Shown here piece after piece: positions 28,033 to 34,748 of a stretch of 64,000 nt of DNA. Source of the stretch: Candidatus Amphrikana amoebophyrae. GTDB lineage: Bacteria > Chlamydiota > Chlamydiia > Chlamydiales > JACRBE01. The notes under the pieces are model-generated. The model had not been told where the DNA came from. It ran no database searches and worked only from the letters and a program-made list of their open reading frames with translations. The stretch's first letter is position 1. Each line of letters begins with the position of its first letter. The stretch is taken from contig JAUHQG010000027.1 in NCBI GenBank assembly GCA_030408475.1, forward strand, positions 3,024-67,023, written 5' to 3'. A program made the position numbers and the translations under genes.

Positions 28033-28398
28033 CTAATCCTGAAAGTAGCGATCGACTGTATTGCGCAACTGGTCAGGGGTATATGGCTTAGATAAATAAT
28101 CTAAATTTGTTAAATTCACTTTGTTTTCTATCTCTTCTTTTGGATGAGCCGAAATAATAACTATAGGGGTGTTAGTTGCAATGCCACTCCCTTTAATTTG
28201 TTCACTCGTTTTAAACCCATCAATCCCTGGAAGAGTTACATCCATGAGTATCAACTCAGGAGTATGGTCTGTGCAGTATCTAACGGCAGATTCGCCATCA
28301 GCAAATCTTGTAATTTCATACCCTTTTTTATTGAGTATCTTTTCCATTAATAGTGCATTGTCATCGTCATCCTCGACAATCATAACTGTATGTGCCAT
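28033..28398 (-). CDS. Single-domain response regulator (CheY-like receiver)
   Basis: 121 aa with VMIVEDDDD (acidic pocket), LILMDVTLPG (phospho-acceptor Asp), VIISAH and YLSKPY (conserved Lys). All canonical receiver residues are present. Confidence 0.9.
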   Translation of the reverse strand: MAHTVMIVEDDDDNALLMEKILNKKGYEITRFADGESAVRYCTDHTPELILMDVTLPGIDGFKTSEQIKGSGIATNTPIVIISAHPKEEIENKVNLTNLDYLSKPYTPDQLRNTVDRYFQD

Positions 28399-28437
28399 GT
28401 TGCGCTATTCTCCATGTTTATGTGTGCCATGAAAAAC

Positions 28438-30084
28438 TCAAATAACTGAGTTTTTCATAACTTTTTCTATTTTCTTTTTGTCACCAAATTGGTGAATTTT
28501 TTCTTTTGGGAAGCATAATGAAATGACTGTCCCTTGTTTGCCGGTATCTTTTTCCAATTGAATGTAGCCGTCAAGAGCCTCTGCTATCTTCTTAGCAATA
28601 GGTAGGCCTAATCCAATTCCCCCCATTTTATCATCTATTTGAAGGGTGAAAAAGGGATCAAAGATTCTCTCTTGGTCGCTTGTCGCTATACCTAGGCCAG
28701 AATCTTTTACGGTGAGTTTTAAGGTTTCCTTATCAGTTGAAAGTGAAACATTAATTTCTCCCTGCTGCGTAAATTTAGTTGCATTTCGAATCAATTCAAG
28801 CAAAATCTGTTTGATGCGAGTGCTATCTGAAGTAATATAGTATTGATCTTCAATGTATTGCGTAATCTTGAGATCTTTTTCTTGCGCTCTAGCTTGGGAA
28901 GATAAAACGCATAACTGAACAATTTGCGCCAAATTAACCTCTTCTGGATTATAAATAACCCTTCCCCCTTCGATTTTTGATATATCTATGAGCTCATTGA
29001 TCATGAGAGTTAATTTTTTAGCTGCAGTATTGATTAGATTGATGGAGCTTTTTTGGCGCATATTAATGGGGCCATCAAACTCCTCAAGCATACAATCAGC
29101 TAATCCTAAAATAGTGGTTAAAGGGGTGCGTAATTTATAAGAGAGAGCGGATAAAAATCTATCTTTTGCCTGAGAGGCTTCTTCTGCTTTTTTTTTGCTT
29201 TCATCTAAAATTACATAGTAGATGCGGTTATCTGAGTGAAGCCCAAGTAGAGGGATAAAAATAGCGATAAGTTCCATGATATGGGAAAATCCAAGCGTTC
29301 CAAAGTCTTGAGGGCGAGGGTCGTAAATGAGGTAGGCTTCAGATGCTATATTGGGAATAAGGCTTAATATTAGTGCGTATCTAAATAAGGTGGGGTGTTG
29401 CTTAAAAAGTATGAAAAAAGAGGGAGTCAAAACGGTAAGAATCAAAAAGAGGGGAATGTATTCAAGTGCTTGGTTTCCAAAATCTTGCCCAAATATCATT
29501 TGAGTGAGCTCTCGAATGTATACTAAATAATAAAGAGCTCCACCACCCAATAGAGTCGTATATATGGTAACACTAATCACCACCAATGCAGCACTTTTGG
29601 TTTTTATTTTTTGATATATGAAGACGATAAAAGCGCAAATAGAGAGTGAGAGGGTGAAAAACAATCGGTCTTCCCACCAAGCAAAACCTATAGTATGAGT
29701 TGTAGGAAGCTCTAGCTTTAGTAACCCTTCAATAGTCAATATTTCAACTAAGTTTAAAGTGCCTAATAAAAAGAAACCTATTCCAAATATTAATGGGGCT
29801 ATATTACGTGAAAAACCAAAATTAATACAGCCAATAACTAGTATCATCAATGAAAAGCTGAAGTCTAGCCAAGTGAGAATTAAAGAGGATGTTGTAGTAA
29901 GCAGGATTGCTACAGATTCTGGTATGAAGCTTGTCCACATTTCATGCTCTTTAGAAAAGAGGGTGGTTTCAAGATGTTCAACCTCAAGGAATAAAAAAGC
30001 AAGCAAGCTGATTCCTAAAACAAGCCAAACAGAATGCTTGAATATAGGGATACGTCTTGCTTTGTTAGCGTGTTCAAACTGCAT
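28438..30084 (-). CDS. Membrane sensor histidine-kinase-like protein (HisKA + HATPase_c) whose H-box reads Tyr
   Basis: About 8 N-terminal TM helices. The DHp box reads AKDRFLSALSYKLRTPL, where the canonical form is ...SHELRTPL. The N box (LIRNATKFT), G1 (DSGLGI), F box (IFDPFF) and G2 (GGIGLGLPIA) are intact. Confidence 0.85.
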   Translation of the reverse strand: MQFEHANKARRIPIFKHSVWLVLGISLLAFLFLEVEHLETTLFSKEHEMWTSFIPESVAILLTTTSSLILTWLDFSFSLMILVIGCINFGFSRNIAPLIFGIGFFLLGTLNLVEILTIEGLLKLELPTTHTIGFAWWEDRLFFTLSLSICAFIVFIYQKIKTKSAALVVISVTIYTTLLGGGALYYLVYIRELTQMIFGQDFGNQALEYIPLFLILTVLTPSFFILFKQHPTLFRYALILSLIPNIASEAYLIYDPRPQDFGTLGFSHIMELIAIFIPLLGLHSDNRIYYVILDESKKKAEEASQAKDRFLSALSYKLRTPLTTILGLADCMLEEFDGPINMRQKSSINLINTAAKKLTLMINELIDISKIEGGRVIYNPEEVNLAQIVQLCVLSSQARAQEKDLKITQYIEDQYYITSDSTRIKQILLELIRNATKFTQQGEINVSLSTDKETLKLTVKDSGLGIATSDQERIFDPFFTLQIDDKMGGIGLGLPIAKKIAEALDGYIQLEKDTGKQGTVISLCFPKEKIHQFGDKKKIEKVMKNSVI

Positions 30085-30205
30085 AACAACTCAATATAGA
30101 TAAATTACCGGCAATTTTTCTTATATTACTTAATTTCAGTGCGGTCAATACAAATTAACATTGTAATTAACTTGTCCAACTAATTAAATAAAAGGAAAAG
30201 AGGGG

Positions 30206-31588
30206 ATGCTGCTCTTAATGGAAACTTTTTTTAAGACATCTAATCTAATTTTGATGTATTACTTTCTGGCTATCAATACGTTATATGCGCTTTTGATTGC
30301 CCTTTCCATTCCTGCTATTTATAAGCGTTTTAAGTCAGTTGGTCTTGAAGATATCTCAAAACTTTTAAAATCAGAGTCATTGCCTACAATTTCTATAGTC
30401 TTGCCTGTATATAATGAAGGGCTGGGTGGAATTGCGGCTGTTCATAATTTATTAGAGCTTCACTACCCGAGTAAAGACTTAATAGTGGTTAATGATGGAT
30501 CTCCCGATAACACCATGGAGCTTTTGATTAATGAATTTGAACTGGTAGAAACTTTTGCAATGCCAAATGGAAACTTACCTACAGAGAAAGTATCAAAAGC
30601 GTATAGATCCAAGAGGTTTTCTAACCTACTTGTTTTAGATAAAGAAAATGGCGGTAAAAGCGACGCTAATAACTGCGGAATTAACTATAGTTTTGCCAAG
30701 CTCTATTTAAATGTAGATGGAGATACCATTTTAGAAAATGATGCCCTTTTGCGAATGGTGCGACCATTTCTCACCGAGAAACTAATTCTTTGTCAAGGAG
30801 CTACTATTCGCATACTTAATGGGTGCACGGTTAAAAATGGAAAGATTACCAATGTTGAACTTCCTCGAAATTATTGGGCCGGAATACAGATTGTTGAATA
30901 TATGAGGTCATTTATCTATGGAAAGTTAGGTTGGAATAGTTTGGGGGGAAATCTAATTGTATCGGGAGCTTTTGGCTTGTTTGATAGAAAGGCTGTGATT
31001 GAGTGTGGCGGTTATAATACTAAGGCAATTGGAGAAGATTTTGAATTAACGATGACGCTTACAATGAAAAGGCGTTTAGAGAAAGAGAAAGCTAAAGCGG
31101 TGATGTTTATTCCTGATCCTGTTGCTTGGACAGATGTTCCACCCACCTATTCAGAGCTTGGGACTCAAAGAGCTCGTTGGCACCAGGGGTTATGTGACAC
31201 AATGTGGATTCATAAAGACATGTTTTTTAATCCGAAGTATGGAATGACAGGCATGCTGGGTTATCCTTATATGTTCTTTGGAGAGCTTATTGAACCGCTT
31301 GTAGAGACATTTGCCTATTTTTTGATCTTTTTTGGAATTAGTTTAGGCTATTTGACATGGAGAGATGGCCTTTTAGTTTTGATGGTTTCATGGGGATTGA
31401 CTTCAATTATGACAATGATTGCGGTGGTAATGGAAGTGTCTACATTTCGTAGATATAAGAGATTAGGCCAATTTGCTTTGTTATTTATGTACACTTTTTT
31501 AGAGGTATTAGGTTATCGCCAGATGTATATTTGGTGGAGATTCAAGGGTTTTTGGAGATATTTCAAGAGCACTAAGGGGTATTATTAA
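30206..31588 (+). CDS. Processive family-2 glycosyltransferase (PgaC/IcaA/NodC/chitin- or cellulose-synthase-like)
   Basis: SIVLPVYNE, VVNDGSPDNT, VDGDT (DXD), GEDFELT and the QRARW (QxxRW) processivity motif. There are one or two TM helices at the N-terminus and about three after the catalytic domain. AGAGGGG precedes the ATG. Confidence 0.85.
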   Translation: MLLLMETFFKTSNLILMYYFLAINTLYALLIALSIPAIYKRFKSVGLEDISKLLKSESLPTISIVLPVYNEGLGGIAAVHNLLELHYPSKDLIVVNDGSPDNTMELLINEFELVETFAMPNGNLPTEKVSKAYRSKRFSNLLVLDKENGGKSDANNCGINYSFAKLYLNVDGDTILENDALLRMVRPFLTEKLILCQGATIRILNGCTVKNGKITNVELPRNYWAGIQIVEYMRSFIYGKLGWNSLGGNLIVSGAFGLFDRKAVIECGGYNTKAIGEDFELTMTLTMKRRLEKEKAKAVMFIPDPVAWTDVPPTYSELGTQRARWHQGLCDTMWIHKDMFFNPKYGMTGMLGYPYMFFGELIEPLVETFAYFLIFFGISLGYLTWRDGLLVLMVSWGLTSIMTMIAVVMEVSTFRRYKRLGQFALLFMYTFLEVLGYRQMYIWWRFKGFWRYFKSTKGYY

Positions 31589-31591
31589 GAG

Positions 31592-33217
31592 ATGAAAAAA
31601 TGGATCTATCTACTTATGTTTGCTTTTTGTATATCTGTTGCTGCTCAAGAAAAATTAACTGATGAGCAAACCTACGGCTTGATTAAAAAGGCAACGCAAT
31701 TTGAAGACGAGAAGCAGTATAAAGAGGCTATTAACATATATAAAGAGCTCTTAATTGATAAGCCCATAAATCGTGAATATCTTCATCGAATAGCTCTTTT
31801 ATACTATCGAGATCAAGAATATAGAGAATCGGAAAAATATTACTTAGCCATTTTAAAGTGGTATGGTACAGATATCGAAGCTTCAATTTGGCTAGCCCGT
31901 ATTTATTACAGGCAACAAAAATTTAAGCTAGCTCAGCAATATTTGGAGCCAGTGATTGAAAAACATCCCGATTATATTGAAGCAGCCGTGTTGCTTGTTC
32001 GTATATATATGGCTTTAGATGAGTGGGAAAAAGCTGAAGAGAGATTAGAAGCAACAGTTGCACTTGACCCTGATGATGTAACCGTAATCAACTTACTTGG
32101 AAATGTTTATGTCCATAATGGTCAATATTCAAATGCTTATAATGAATATAAAAAAGCATGGATAGAATCAGGTGGTGACATCGCATATCTCGATAGAATG
32201 ATTGGGGTGAGGGATGCGGCAAGGCCGCATGCTAGAACTACAGTTGCATTTTCTCAAGAGAGAGAAATAGATTTAGTCTCTCAACTTTTAACTACTCAAA
32301 TTAACACATGGTTTACAGAGTTTTCTTATAATTATCCTCTAAGAGATAATGTACAAGTGTATGCGAAAGGGATGTATAGTCCTGAGCAACAATTTAATAA
32401 GATATCAAATCGCAATAATTACTACGTTAATAATTATGCAAACACGCTAGGCTTTGAGTATAAGTATTTTAACTATTTAACACTTAAAATGCAGTCACAT
32501 CTTAAGTGGGGGACGAATAAGGGTAAAAATAATATATTCCCTTTTGACACACAAACGTCTTGGGAGCCTTTGGTCTCACTTCGCGTGGGTAATTCTCACG
32601 TTAATTATGCTGCTTCAATATATAAAGAGTCATTTGTAGGAAGAGATTTTTCAGATTTAGTTGCTATGTATGTGAGAAAACGCTCAGTGCTAAATGGGGT
32701 TAATTTTAGATTTTTCAATGGCAAATCGATAGTGGGAGGTGATGGAACGTTGAGTATTTATACGGGATCACGTCAAAACCGTCTTCGAGAGTTTAATTTA
32801 TTTGCGATACAAAGAATTGATACTAAACCTATTGCTGCGATAATTGAATATAAATATCTCTATGGAAATTTCACAAAAGTGGATAAGGAGTATTTTTCAT
32901 ATAGGGCAAGATATCGTCACTTTGGAACCTTGAGGCTTATTCGGCCGTGGGGCGGTCGCAATGCTATTGAAGCTCGTTACACTTTTAAATGGCAAAAGTT
33001 GCGAGAATTTGTCAACGTGGCGGAAGAGATTTCGGCTAATAATGCTAGGCCTCCTCAAGAGCTATTGCTCAATATATTAACAGCCAATGAATTTGAATTA
33101 GTGGGAAAATTCTCAATTAGGGATCATTTCACTGTGGAAGGGGGGATTAATTACTACTTTGATAGTAATCAGTATAAGACGATGGGGGGTAACCTCAAAG
33201 TGAACTACTACTTCTAG
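31592..33217 (+). CDS. TPR-repeat plus C-terminal beta-barrel outer-membrane protein (PgaA/BcsC-like exporter architecture)
   Basis: It starts 4 nt after the GT2 stop. Signal peptide MKKWIYLLMFAFCISVAAQ, about 5 TPR-like repeats (aa ~25-200), then about 330 aa of alternating beta-strand pattern ending ...GGNLKVNYYF. Confidence 0.7.
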   Translation: MKKWIYLLMFAFCISVAAQEKLTDEQTYGLIKKATQFEDEKQYKEAINIYKELLIDKPINREYLHRIALLYYRDQEYRESEKYYLAILKWYGTDIEASIWLARIYYRQQKFKLAQQYLEPVIEKHPDYIEAAVLLVRIYMALDEWEKAEERLEATVALDPDDVTVINLLGNVYVHNGQYSNAYNEYKKAWIESGGDIAYLDRMIGVRDAARPHARTTVAFSQEREIDLVSQLLTTQINTWFTEFSYNYPLRDNVQVYAKGMYSPEQQFNKISNRNNYYVNNYANTLGFEYKYFNYLTLKMQSHLKWGTNKGKNNIFPFDTQTSWEPLVSLRVGNSHVNYAASIYKESFVGRDFSDLVAMYVRKRSVLNGVNFRFFNGKSIVGGDGTLSIYTGSRQNRLREFNLFAIQRIDTKPIAAIIEYKYLYGNFTKVDKEYFSYRARYRHFGTLRLIRPWGGRNAIEARYTFKWQKLREFVNVAEEISANNARPPQELLLNILTANEFELVGKFSIRDHFTVEGGINYYFDSNQYKTMGGNLKVNYYF

Positions 33218-33503
33218 AGTGTGTTGAAACACAAGTTTAGTTAGTTGAGCATCGTCTTTTTGTGATCTTTTGCAAAAAAAGTTGCAGCTCACTGTACTTC
33301 AGTACAAGTTTCGCTCCAATTTTTGCCAAATATCAACAAAAATCCGACACTCTTTCTGAACTGACTTTCGGCGATCTTTCATTTTTTATAAAAATAAAAT
33401 CTCATCCAAAATCCATGTCCAGAAAACCTTTTAAATAGGTTGATTAAACTGTTTTTTGAAATGGCTGTTACATACAACTTGGGTTGTTAGATAAAGATGT
33501 TTT

Positions 33504-34748
33504 TTAACTCGCTTTTTCGAGGTTCTCCGTCTCTATGCCTAGTGCCTGGTTATAATATTTTACTCGCTCTTCTGTAATCGCTTTCCATGAAAAGGTTTGC
33601 GCGACATCTAACGCTTTTTGTGAAAGCTCAATCTTTTGATCATAAGGTAGATGCGCTAGCTTTAAAATTGCAGATGCTAACTCGTTGTCATTGGCAGGAG
33701 GCACTAACTTGCCTACAACAAAGTCACGAAGCCCTCCAACTGAAGTTGAGACAAGGGGCAATCCACAAGCCATTGATTCTAAACATGCTATTCCAAAACC
33801 TTCGGAGCGAGAGGGGAGAATGCCAAAATCACAAATATTGTGGATTTCAGCGAGCTCTTCCATGGTGCGATGGCCCAGGAAGTGAACCCTGTCAAATAGA
33901 AATTCCTCTTTTGAGTCAATGTCAATGACATCTTCAATTTTTCCCGAGCCTAATATTATGAAGTGGATGTTCTCTTTTGATTCAATTAACTTGTTGGCTT
34001 TTAAAAGTATGTCTATCCCTTTTGTCTTAGAAATTTTGCCAGCAAAACTAAATATGGTGGCGTCTTCAGGGATATCTAAGCAATAATGATTCAGCACTTC
34101 TTGTCTATTGAGCTCTCGTTTTTGAAATATTTCTTTGTCGTACCCGTTAGTGATGATTTTAACTTTGTCTTTGGAAACGTTATAGAGTCTTACTACTTCT
34201 TCAGCTACATATTTAGAAATGGCAAAAATGTATTTTGCATTGTGGGCAGCTTCAATAGCAATGGGTTGAATTCTTTCATCATACAAAAATCCCATTTGAT
34301 CTGAGTGATGAGCTGTACAGACATAAGGAATTCCAGCTTCTTCGATAATCTTTTCCATGGTCCAAATATGTTGACATTCTACTATGTCGGGCTGAAAGTC
34401 TTTAATTTCTTGTAACAGACTTTCTCGTAAACAATCGTAGTAAAAGGCAAACTCAGATTCAGAAAGTTCTCGATAGGTTCGTTTATGTTCTGGCACACGC
34501 GGATGGGGATCTGGAATCATAAGGGGAAAGGTTTCTATTGAGAAGTTTTCATTGCGAATGGGGAACTTCCAAATCTTATAAATTTCTTTATTGTCGTAAT
34601 AGAGGTTGATGTCTTTAGAGTCTATTCCAGCATCAGGAAAAAAAAGGCGCACTTCATGTCCCATTTTTATGAGAGCGTGAAGTACTGCATTAGCTACAGT
34701 GAAGCTGCCGGTTCCCCATGGACCAGTGTTTGTAATCAAAATCTTCAT
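33504..34748 (-). CDS. Glycosyltransferase family 4 (GT-B, retaining)
   Basis: C-terminal EGFGIACLESMACGLPLVSTSVGGLRDFV (EX7E-type motif) and an N-terminal MKILITNTGPWGTGS Rossmann start. Confidence 0.85.
   Translation of the reverse strand: MKILITNTGPWGTGSFTVANAVLHALIKMGHEVRLFFPDAGIDSKDINLYYDNKEIYKIWKFPIRNENFSIETFPLMIPDPHPRVPEHKRTYRELSESEFAFYYDCLRESLLQEIKDFQPDIVECQHIWTMEKIIEEAGIPYVCTAHHSDQMGFLYDERIQPIAIEAAHNAKYIFAISKYVAEEVVRLYNVSKDKVKIITNGYDKEIFQKRELNRQEVLNHYCLDIPEDATIFSFAGKISKTKGIDILLKANKLIESKENIHFIILGSGKIEDVIDIDSKEEFLFDRVHFLGHRTMEELAEIHNICDFGILPSRSEGFGIACLESMACGLPLVSTSVGGLRDFVVGKLVPPANDNELASAILKLAHLPYDQKIELSQKALDVAQTFSWKAITEERVKYYNQALGIETENLEKAS

Follow-up and report, generated by a model that had tools for sequence, protein, structure and literature searches.

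Sensor proteins that keep the fold of a histidine kinase but have lost its phospho-acceptor histidine are, to our knowledge, known from very few studied cases, DivL of the alphaproteobacterium Caulobacter crescentus above all. The H-box of DivL reads SYELRTPLTTI, with a tyrosine (Tyr550) at the acceptor site. DivL has neither kinase nor phosphatase activity, binds the analogue trinitrophenyl (TNP)-ATP only weakly and recognises phosphorylated DivK (DivK~P) through its response regulator-docking face, where the substitutions R553A and T557N disrupt DivK binding (Childers et al., PMC4211667). Here, we compare with DivL and with other described systems the 548-residue product of a kinase-like gene (28438..30084, minus strand) from Candidatus Amphrikana amoebophyrae, located in a 64,000-nucleotide stretch of contig JAUHQG010000027.1 (assembly GCA_030408475.1) that we refer to as the window. 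The description that best suits its sequence and conservation is that of a conserved pseudo-histidine kinase belonging to a polysaccharide-linked phosphorelay of chlamydiae.

RetS of Pseudomonas aeruginosa, which controls polysaccharide and biofilm genes, is likewise a kinase-fold sensor whose own autophosphorylation is not used, and it ranks with the closest matches to the window protein in both sequence and fold; it differs in that it keeps its histidine, carries receiver domains and acts on GacS, and no GacS-type partner is present in the window locus. The split CheA of Synechocystis, PilL-N/PilL-C (also known as Hik36/Hik43), is similar in pairing a kinase module without an acceptor histidine with a separate histidine phosphotransfer (HPt) protein, and has been linked to exopolysaccharide and aggregation phenotypes (PMC7656254). 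The CheA family is, however, characterized by CheA-type dimerisation and CheW-like domains, whereas the window protein has a HisKA domain with the flank of its H-box preserved. Phosphorelays of the Spo0F/Spo0B type resemble the window locus in their succession of a kinase-like protein, a single-domain receiver, an HPt domain and then further receivers, but here the first component is not phosphorylatable on histidine and so the relay must be entered elsewhere.

The domain organisation of the window protein is that of a membrane-bound sensor kinase, all three parts being encoded on the minus strand: a multi-pass N-terminal membrane domain (about residues 1-290; 29215..30084), a dimerisation and histidine phosphotransfer (DHp) domain of the HisKA type (residues 306-374; 28963..29169) with the H-box SYKLRTPLTTILG, and a CA (catalytic, ATP-binding) domain of the HATPase_c type (residues 420-528; 28501..28827). 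The matches to HisKA (PF00512, 46.7 bits against a cut-off of 26.9) and HATPase_c (PF02518, 86.6 bits) lie above the Pfam thresholds. The membrane domain is called MASE3-like from its predicted helices and a weak match to PF17159 (19.5-21.7 bits, below the cut-off of 31), a family matched by four of 11 family members with a best E of 4e-14. The AlphaFold2 (AF2) model (mean predicted local distance difference test score 70.6) has multiple transmembrane helices, a continuous helix (residues 261-333) that extends from the last of these into DHp helix 1, then the second helix of the DHp domain and a CA domain of alpha/beta type; its closest structural matches are GacS, RetS, HK853 and DivL. Antisense to the 5' part of the gene there is a 114-residue open reading frame (29759-30103, plus strand), most likely a chance open frame.

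An earlier reading of the window from its sequence alone (the sequence-only reading) had proposed that tyrosine takes the place of the phospho-acceptor histidine, and Pfam, phmmer and BLASTP alignments agree in bearing this out. The codon at 29137..29139, TAT on the minus strand ('ata' on the plus strand), encodes Tyr316. In phmmer comparisons with solved kinases, LSALSYKLRTPL falls beneath MSHEIRTPL of GacS (7z8n) and RetS (6dk8) and beneath VSHDLRNPM of 8u4x, with SYKLRTPL on SHEIRTPL and SHDLRNPM, which places Tyr316 in the acceptor column of GacS, RetS, 8u4x and HK853-type kinases; BLASTP to the DivL-like protein P0031 (best PDB match 4q20; labels of this kind are our own) gives a kinase-core identity of 34% and sets Tyr316 on the tyrosine of SYELRTPL. 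Since these alignments set Tyr316 under the histidine of kinases or the tyrosine of DivL-like proteins, the H-box is correctly placed, and neither a second histidine in DHp helix 1 nor an invariant histidine column in the family alignments was found. A shifted acceptor was considered because three relatives have histidine at the next position, H+1 (P0124 YHLRT, P0126 YHLRQ and P0200 FHLRT), and was rejected, as this column is unconserved and holds lysine in the window protein. The four ATP-binding boxes are present, as had been noted from the sequence: N (IRNATKFT), G1 (DSGLGI), F (IFDPFF) and G2 (GGIGLGL). Measured against a functional HisKA kinase, then, the protein has the domains and the ATP boxes and lacks both the acceptor histidine and an acidic residue at H+1 (Lys317; H+4 is Thr320), for which reason autophosphorylation, and with it normal input into a relay, would be impossible. 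Among 403 other kinase cores drawn from the search matches, the residue at this column is His in 395, Tyr in five, Gln in two and Arg in one; cores without the histidine are uncommon (about 2%), though the window protein is not the sole case, and tyrosine is the commonest replacement.

The loss of the histidine is a property of a whole clade. The closest full-length homologue found first, P0002, is of equal length, shares 35% pairwise identity and has isoleucine at the histidine column. A profile search of 1.84 billion representatives added seven full-length homologues that also lack the histidine. In 400 genomes of the same order, a profile built on the N-terminal sensor domain picked up a homologue in 12, and eleven more loci came from metagenome contigs reached through the neighbouring glycosyltransferase family 2 (GT2) gene, one of them with only a truncated kinase-like N-terminus. 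A homologue search with the clade profile was dominated by generic kinases and added nothing, and a locus search with a four-sequence alignment returned just a single true orthologue amid 32 generic kinases. A maximum-likelihood tree unites 13 sequences, 24-39% identical to the window protein, in a single clade (bootstrap and Shimodaira-Hasegawa-like approximate likelihood ratio test (SH-aLRT) values 88/94). When these orthologues are aligned, a check that the sequence-only reading had proposed, tyrosine proves not to be universal, being found in eight of the 13 (the window protein, P0123, P0124/L079, P0126/L082, P0143/L083, L080, G084 and G263), while histidine is absent from all of them; the remaining five have serine (P0122/G055 and L081), phenylalanine (P0200), isoleucine (P0002/L021) or glutamate (P0121/L087). 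Tyrosine is common to the three nearest relatives (the window protein, P0123 and P0124) and is seen in every major sub-branch, so that the simplest history is a single ancient change from His to Tyr, after which Tyr would have been replaced by Phe, Ser, Ile or Glu in individual lineages. No member has Glu or Asp at H+1 and eight of 13 have Thr at H+4; the H-box is otherwise retained, as is the receiver-docking helix, and N434, D461, G463, G465, G491 and G493 are invariant throughout.

These alignments also bear on the proposal that the gene is decaying or functionless, or that the Tyr316 codon is an assembly or sequencing error. The proposal finds some footing in distant members of the family, since G199, G273, G289 and L089 have lost their ATP boxes as well and the module is thus able to degenerate. 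It is nonetheless very improbable for the window protein, given an intact frame of 548 residues, 16 invariant columns over 13 sequences of such low identity, and a tyrosine common to the nearest relatives, encoded by synonymous codons (TAT in four loci, TAC in three) within fixed synteny; even the nearest relative shares no more than 39% identity, and synonymous sites have reached saturation. As judged from the clade, the loss of the histidine is old, selected and clade-wide, and the sequencing error or recent inactivating mutation that the sequence-only reading had entertained can be dismissed. A tyrosine autokinase of the sort initially proposed for DivL, in which the CA domain would phosphorylate Tyr316 itself, could draw on the tyrosine of those eight members, whose ATP pocket is intact, but is scarcely credible with Phe, Ile, Glu or Ser in the other five. 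It is also established that a phosphotyrosine ester cannot drive transfer to aspartate. DivL, moreover, is without autokinase activity in vitro (PMC4211667).

Deeper relatives at the same locus depart from the kinase consensus in other combinations. Asparagine stands at the histidine site in G273 and L089 and glutamate in G199, in each case with the ATP boxes destroyed; L088 has arginine and intact ATP boxes, and G289 (L046 / L036) shows the complementary defect, its histidine being kept (THEILNPL) and its N, G1 and G2 boxes lost. Outside the locus, the same sensor domain occurs in proteins that keep the histidine (P0202, G010, G102, G003 and G360), of which P0202 and G010 carry a fused C-terminal receiver, and we count this as support for histidine as the probable ancestral state. 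Deep in the tree, branches are long and resolution is poor, and an order of events is claimed only within the 13-member clade.

Residue by residue, the crystallised chain of DivL (PDB 4q20), NVSYELRTPLTTIIG, can be set against the window protein, ALSYKLRTPLTTILG. The two H-boxes, SYELRTPLTTI and SYKLRTPLTTI, are almost identical and have tyrosine at the acceptor site in both; R319, T320, P321 and T323 of the window protein match R553, T554, P555 and T557 of DivL. Both proteins have the HisKA/HATPase_c fold with the N, G1 and G2 residues kept, and since DivL keeps them, intact ATP boxes are no proof of catalysis. The partner in each case is a single-domain receiver, DivK for DivL and, as predicted here from gene order and analogy, the product of the adjoining gene, REC121. 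In architecture and setting the two differ: DivL has cytoplasmic PAS domains and acts on CckA in the alphaproteobacterial cell cycle, whereas the window protein joins a MASE3-like membrane domain directly to the DHp domain, has no PAS match and belongs to a chlamydial polysaccharide and HPt-relay locus. Because its nearest relatives are the His-bearing MASE3 kinases of chlamydiae, the tyrosine arose independently of DivL. The window protein, by this phylogenetic evidence, has the tyrosine that marks the DivL orthologous family in SYELRTPL without that family's PAS domains or descent, and the resemblance to DivL-DivK is convergent. Horizontal transfer of a DivL core was considered and is ruled out by the tree and by the order of the search matches.

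With the kinase fold kept, the acceptor histidine absent and the loss conserved among orthologues together with synteny, the protein is, in sequence terms, a pseudo-histidine kinase, and the pseudokinase or phosphatase role that had been listed among the possibilities gains support from the loss of both His and the acidic H+1 in all 13 members alongside the retained H-box remainder and docking helix. By analogy with DivL, we think it probable, if some way from certain, that this is a kinase-dead member of a chlamydial MASE3-type sensor family that acts by docking REC121. The REC121 gene (28033..28398, minus strand) encodes a single-domain receiver (Pfam Response_reg, 86.3 bits) with a complete acidic pocket (EDDDD), Asp53 and the conserved lysine in SKPY, whose closest relatives of solved structure include Spo0F, receivers of hybrid kinases and DivK. 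In the mechanism that we propose, tyrosine would have replaced the acceptor histidine once, long ago, and the acidic neighbour would have gone as well, leaving a dimeric DHp helix with a receiver-docking H-box, together with a CA domain in which the residues of the nucleotide pocket are conserved. REC121 would dock on this surface with Tyr316 opposite the phosphate of the receiver's Asp53, and the membrane domain may tune the docking. In this way docking could sequester the receiver, report on it or possibly dephosphorylate it (Thr320 at H+4 being kept), and would gate the flow of phosphate among REC121, the HPt histidine (His485) of a neighbouring 1099-residue hub protein and the receivers of that same protein. 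The hub is presumed to be co-transcribed with a UDP-sugar enzyme, opposite a polysaccharide cluster of GT2, tetratricopeptide repeat (TPR) and glycosyltransferase family 4 (GT4) genes, and phosphate would be supplied by a canonical kinase.

In HisKA kinases, it is specifically kinase activity that depends on an acidic residue at H+1, and specifically phosphatase activity that depends on Thr or Asn at H+4 (Willett and Kirby, PMC3510030), and a further study reports that the histidine side chain contributes to the phosphatase reaction in HK853 and EnvZ (PMC7005713). A reading of the protein as a phosphatase alone was reduced to a sub-variant, given that Thr at H+4 is found in just eight of 13 members and that the part played by histidine in the phosphatase reaction is debated.

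The association between tyrosine and the receiver is suggestive. Orthologues of REC121, which we group as REC-A, lie between the kinase-like and HPt genes in L079, L080, G084, G263/L084 and L082, and one adjoins the His-bearing hybrid relative in G010. Where the context is known, REC-A is present at six loci with tyrosine at the histidine site and absent from one (L083), and it is absent from all nine with another residue, which would fit a tyrosine that is constrained only while its cognate receiver is present. The raw hypergeometric probability of this table is about 9e-4, the loci being related and not independent. A second group of single-domain receivers, REC-B, marked by a KPC motif, accompanies polysaccharide genes or an extra canonical kinase (L080 9553-9915; L081 14208-14567; L038 13541-13894; L044 5773-6105), and none occurs in the window's locus.

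Several observations weigh against docking of REC121 as we have described it. Only four independent contrasts underlie the association with REC-A, of which three agree, none opposes and one is tied (sign test p = 0.25), and L083 has the tyrosine without the receiver, so that the co-occurrence is a lead and not a result. The tyrosine is dispensable in five clade members, and the docking itself is argued from gene order and the analogy with DivL. Lys at H+1, taken together with the role reported for histidine in HK853 and EnvZ (PMC7005713), makes strong phosphatase activity uncertain. The invariant residues of the ATP pocket, finally, suggest that nucleotide binding is still under selection, which a pure scaffold does not explain, although DivL keeps these residues too.

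That ATP pocket speaks for the CheA-like arrangement that the sequence-only reading had put forward, a split kinase in which the CA domain would phosphorylate His485 of the neighbouring HPt domain in trans; in the form considered here, the DHp domain would serve for dimerisation only and the HPt histidine would feed the receivers. As the sequence-only reading had it, the HPt box is on a separate protein, the 1099-residue HPt-REC-REC-(GGDEF-derived)-REC hub (24730..28029, minus strand; REC, receiver), assigned from synteny, three receiver stretches and a Pfam Hpt match over residues 457-528. Its His485 (codon CAT, 26575..26577, minus strand; IIHKIAGSSGSYGF) lies in a motif kept in most orthologues, and Pfam finds no other Hpt domain in the 1.8-Mb genome (91.6% complete), which has three HisKA proteins and no hybrid kinase that could feed this one. 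The HPt gene is next or next but one to the kinase-like gene in every locus, with coding ends that overlap or nearly abut, none of the 13 His-less members departs from the N, G1 and G2 residues, and Hik36/Hik43 provides a natural precedent for a split CheA (PMC7656254). The adjacency, the single HPt domain and the conserved pocket therefore stand, but trans-phosphorylation of this kind is in our view unlikely. In G273 and G289 the G1 and G2 boxes are destroyed while their partners retain the HPt histidine, and in L088 the boxes are intact while the partner has lost it; in L089 and G199 both are lost. Pocket and HPt histidine are thus not obligately coupled. The flank LRTPLTTILG, typical of receiver docking and unneeded by a CheA-type dimerisation domain, has been kept, DivL has the same ATP-box residues and is inactive, and a canonical route from a kinase through a single receiver to the HPt domain is at hand. 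Pfam assigns the DHp domain to HisKA; with no CheA dimerisation or CheW domain, and an HPt domain on the neighbour only, the protein is not a member of the CheA family as far as its domain matches go. A narrower form, in which the sub-clade with a perfect ATP pocket, the window protein included, would be a split kinase, derived from an orthodox or hybrid HisKA kinase, that phosphorylates His485 in trans, its tyrosine left for receiver docking, likewise seems improbable.

Residues about 830-960 of the hub align end to end with an orthologue (L085) whose corresponding region matches GGDEF (PF00990) above the Pfam cut-off, its signature motif nonetheless being changed, and it follows from this alignment that this region of the hub is GGDEF-derived and degenerate. 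An N-terminal extension of the hub (residues 1 to about 410, with an EPEPDV repeat linker) is found only in the window and in L079 (1054 residues); other orthologues, of about 750-800 residues, begin shortly before the HPt domain.

Docking of REC121 presupposes a source of phosphate elsewhere, and the other two HisKA proteins of the genome have canonical His H-boxes and are unrelated to the pseudo-histidine kinase in sensor and DHp sequence. One of them, a GAF/PAS kinase on contig 19, is directly followed by a single-domain receiver, and this pair is our candidate for the supply. Extra pairs of a canonical kinase and a receiver lie within the locus in L080, L038, L044, L085, L087 and L089, while the window's own locus has no second kinase. 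Instead of docking REC121, the protein might act in the manner of RetS, inhibiting a canonical histidine kinase by forming DHp heteromers with it or by draining its phosphate. The core is closest to GacS and RetS in sequence and predicted fold, several relatives have a second canonical kinase in the same locus, and the Gac/Rsm system controls polysaccharide production, as the present one would too, all of which count in favour. We nonetheless give such inhibition little credence here, for the window locus offers no second kinase, the two elsewhere in the genome are unrelated, the similarity to GacS and RetS (28% identity) is at the level of the general hybrid-kinase class, and the co-occurrence of tyrosine with REC-A would go unexplained.

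Environmental chlamydiae have very few two-component proteins, and the pseudo-histidine kinase probably marks where signals enter a conserved, as yet uncharacterised polysaccharide locus of these bacteria. No paper on the family was found in the literature searched. It is an independent, convergent His-to-Tyr pseudo-histidine kinase family in another phylum than DivL, and its natural variation, with Tyr, Phe, Ser, Ile, Glu, Arg or Asn at the acceptor site, with or without a partner receiver and with or without a live ATP pocket, could serve to ask what the tyrosine and the nucleotide pocket contribute when the kinase itself is dead. Annotations of such genes as 'sensor histidine kinase' should carry a comment.

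Gene order is fixed in all readable loci: UDP-sugar pyrophosphorylase, a HEAT-like gene, the HPt-REC-REC-(GGDEF-derived)-REC gene, an optional single receiver and the kinase-like gene, with a GT2 synthase, a TPR/outer-membrane protein and a GT4 glycosyltransferase on the divergent side. In the window, the UDP-sugar pyrophosphorylase (22487..23593, minus strand) stands at the end of a probable operon, separated by 9 nt from the HEAT-repeat-like gene (23603..24733, minus strand), which overlaps the hub gene by 4 nt; with spacings of 39, 3, -4 and 9 nt, the five minus-strand genes look like one operon. The GT2 synthase (PgaC-like; 30206..31588, plus strand), the TPR/outer-membrane protein (31592..33217, plus strand) and the GT4 glycosyltransferase (33504..34748, minus strand) are found beside the pseudo-histidine kinase in every locus examined, and relatives of the GT2 synthase are labelled Simkaniaceae, Chlamydiia or Chlamydiales. 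The locus as a whole (window 22487-34748; L021, L038-L046 and L079-L089) is known from roughly a dozen genomes or contigs spread over several families. It is patchy even among close relatives, since the MASE3 sensor domain has no homologue in a genome of the same genus (G001, 95% complete), whose GT2 protein is only 36% identical. A contig deposited as 'Candidatus Aerophobetes bacterium' (L047, NVUU01000096.1) has the chlamydial locus and is identical to a contig of G084, which belongs to the window's order, so that the organism name is probably a labelling or binning issue. In a more distant member of the Chlamydiales (L085; GCA_024233515.1, JACKPO010000006.1), the locus includes a His-bearing kinase of 514 residues and a PAS kinase plus receiver.

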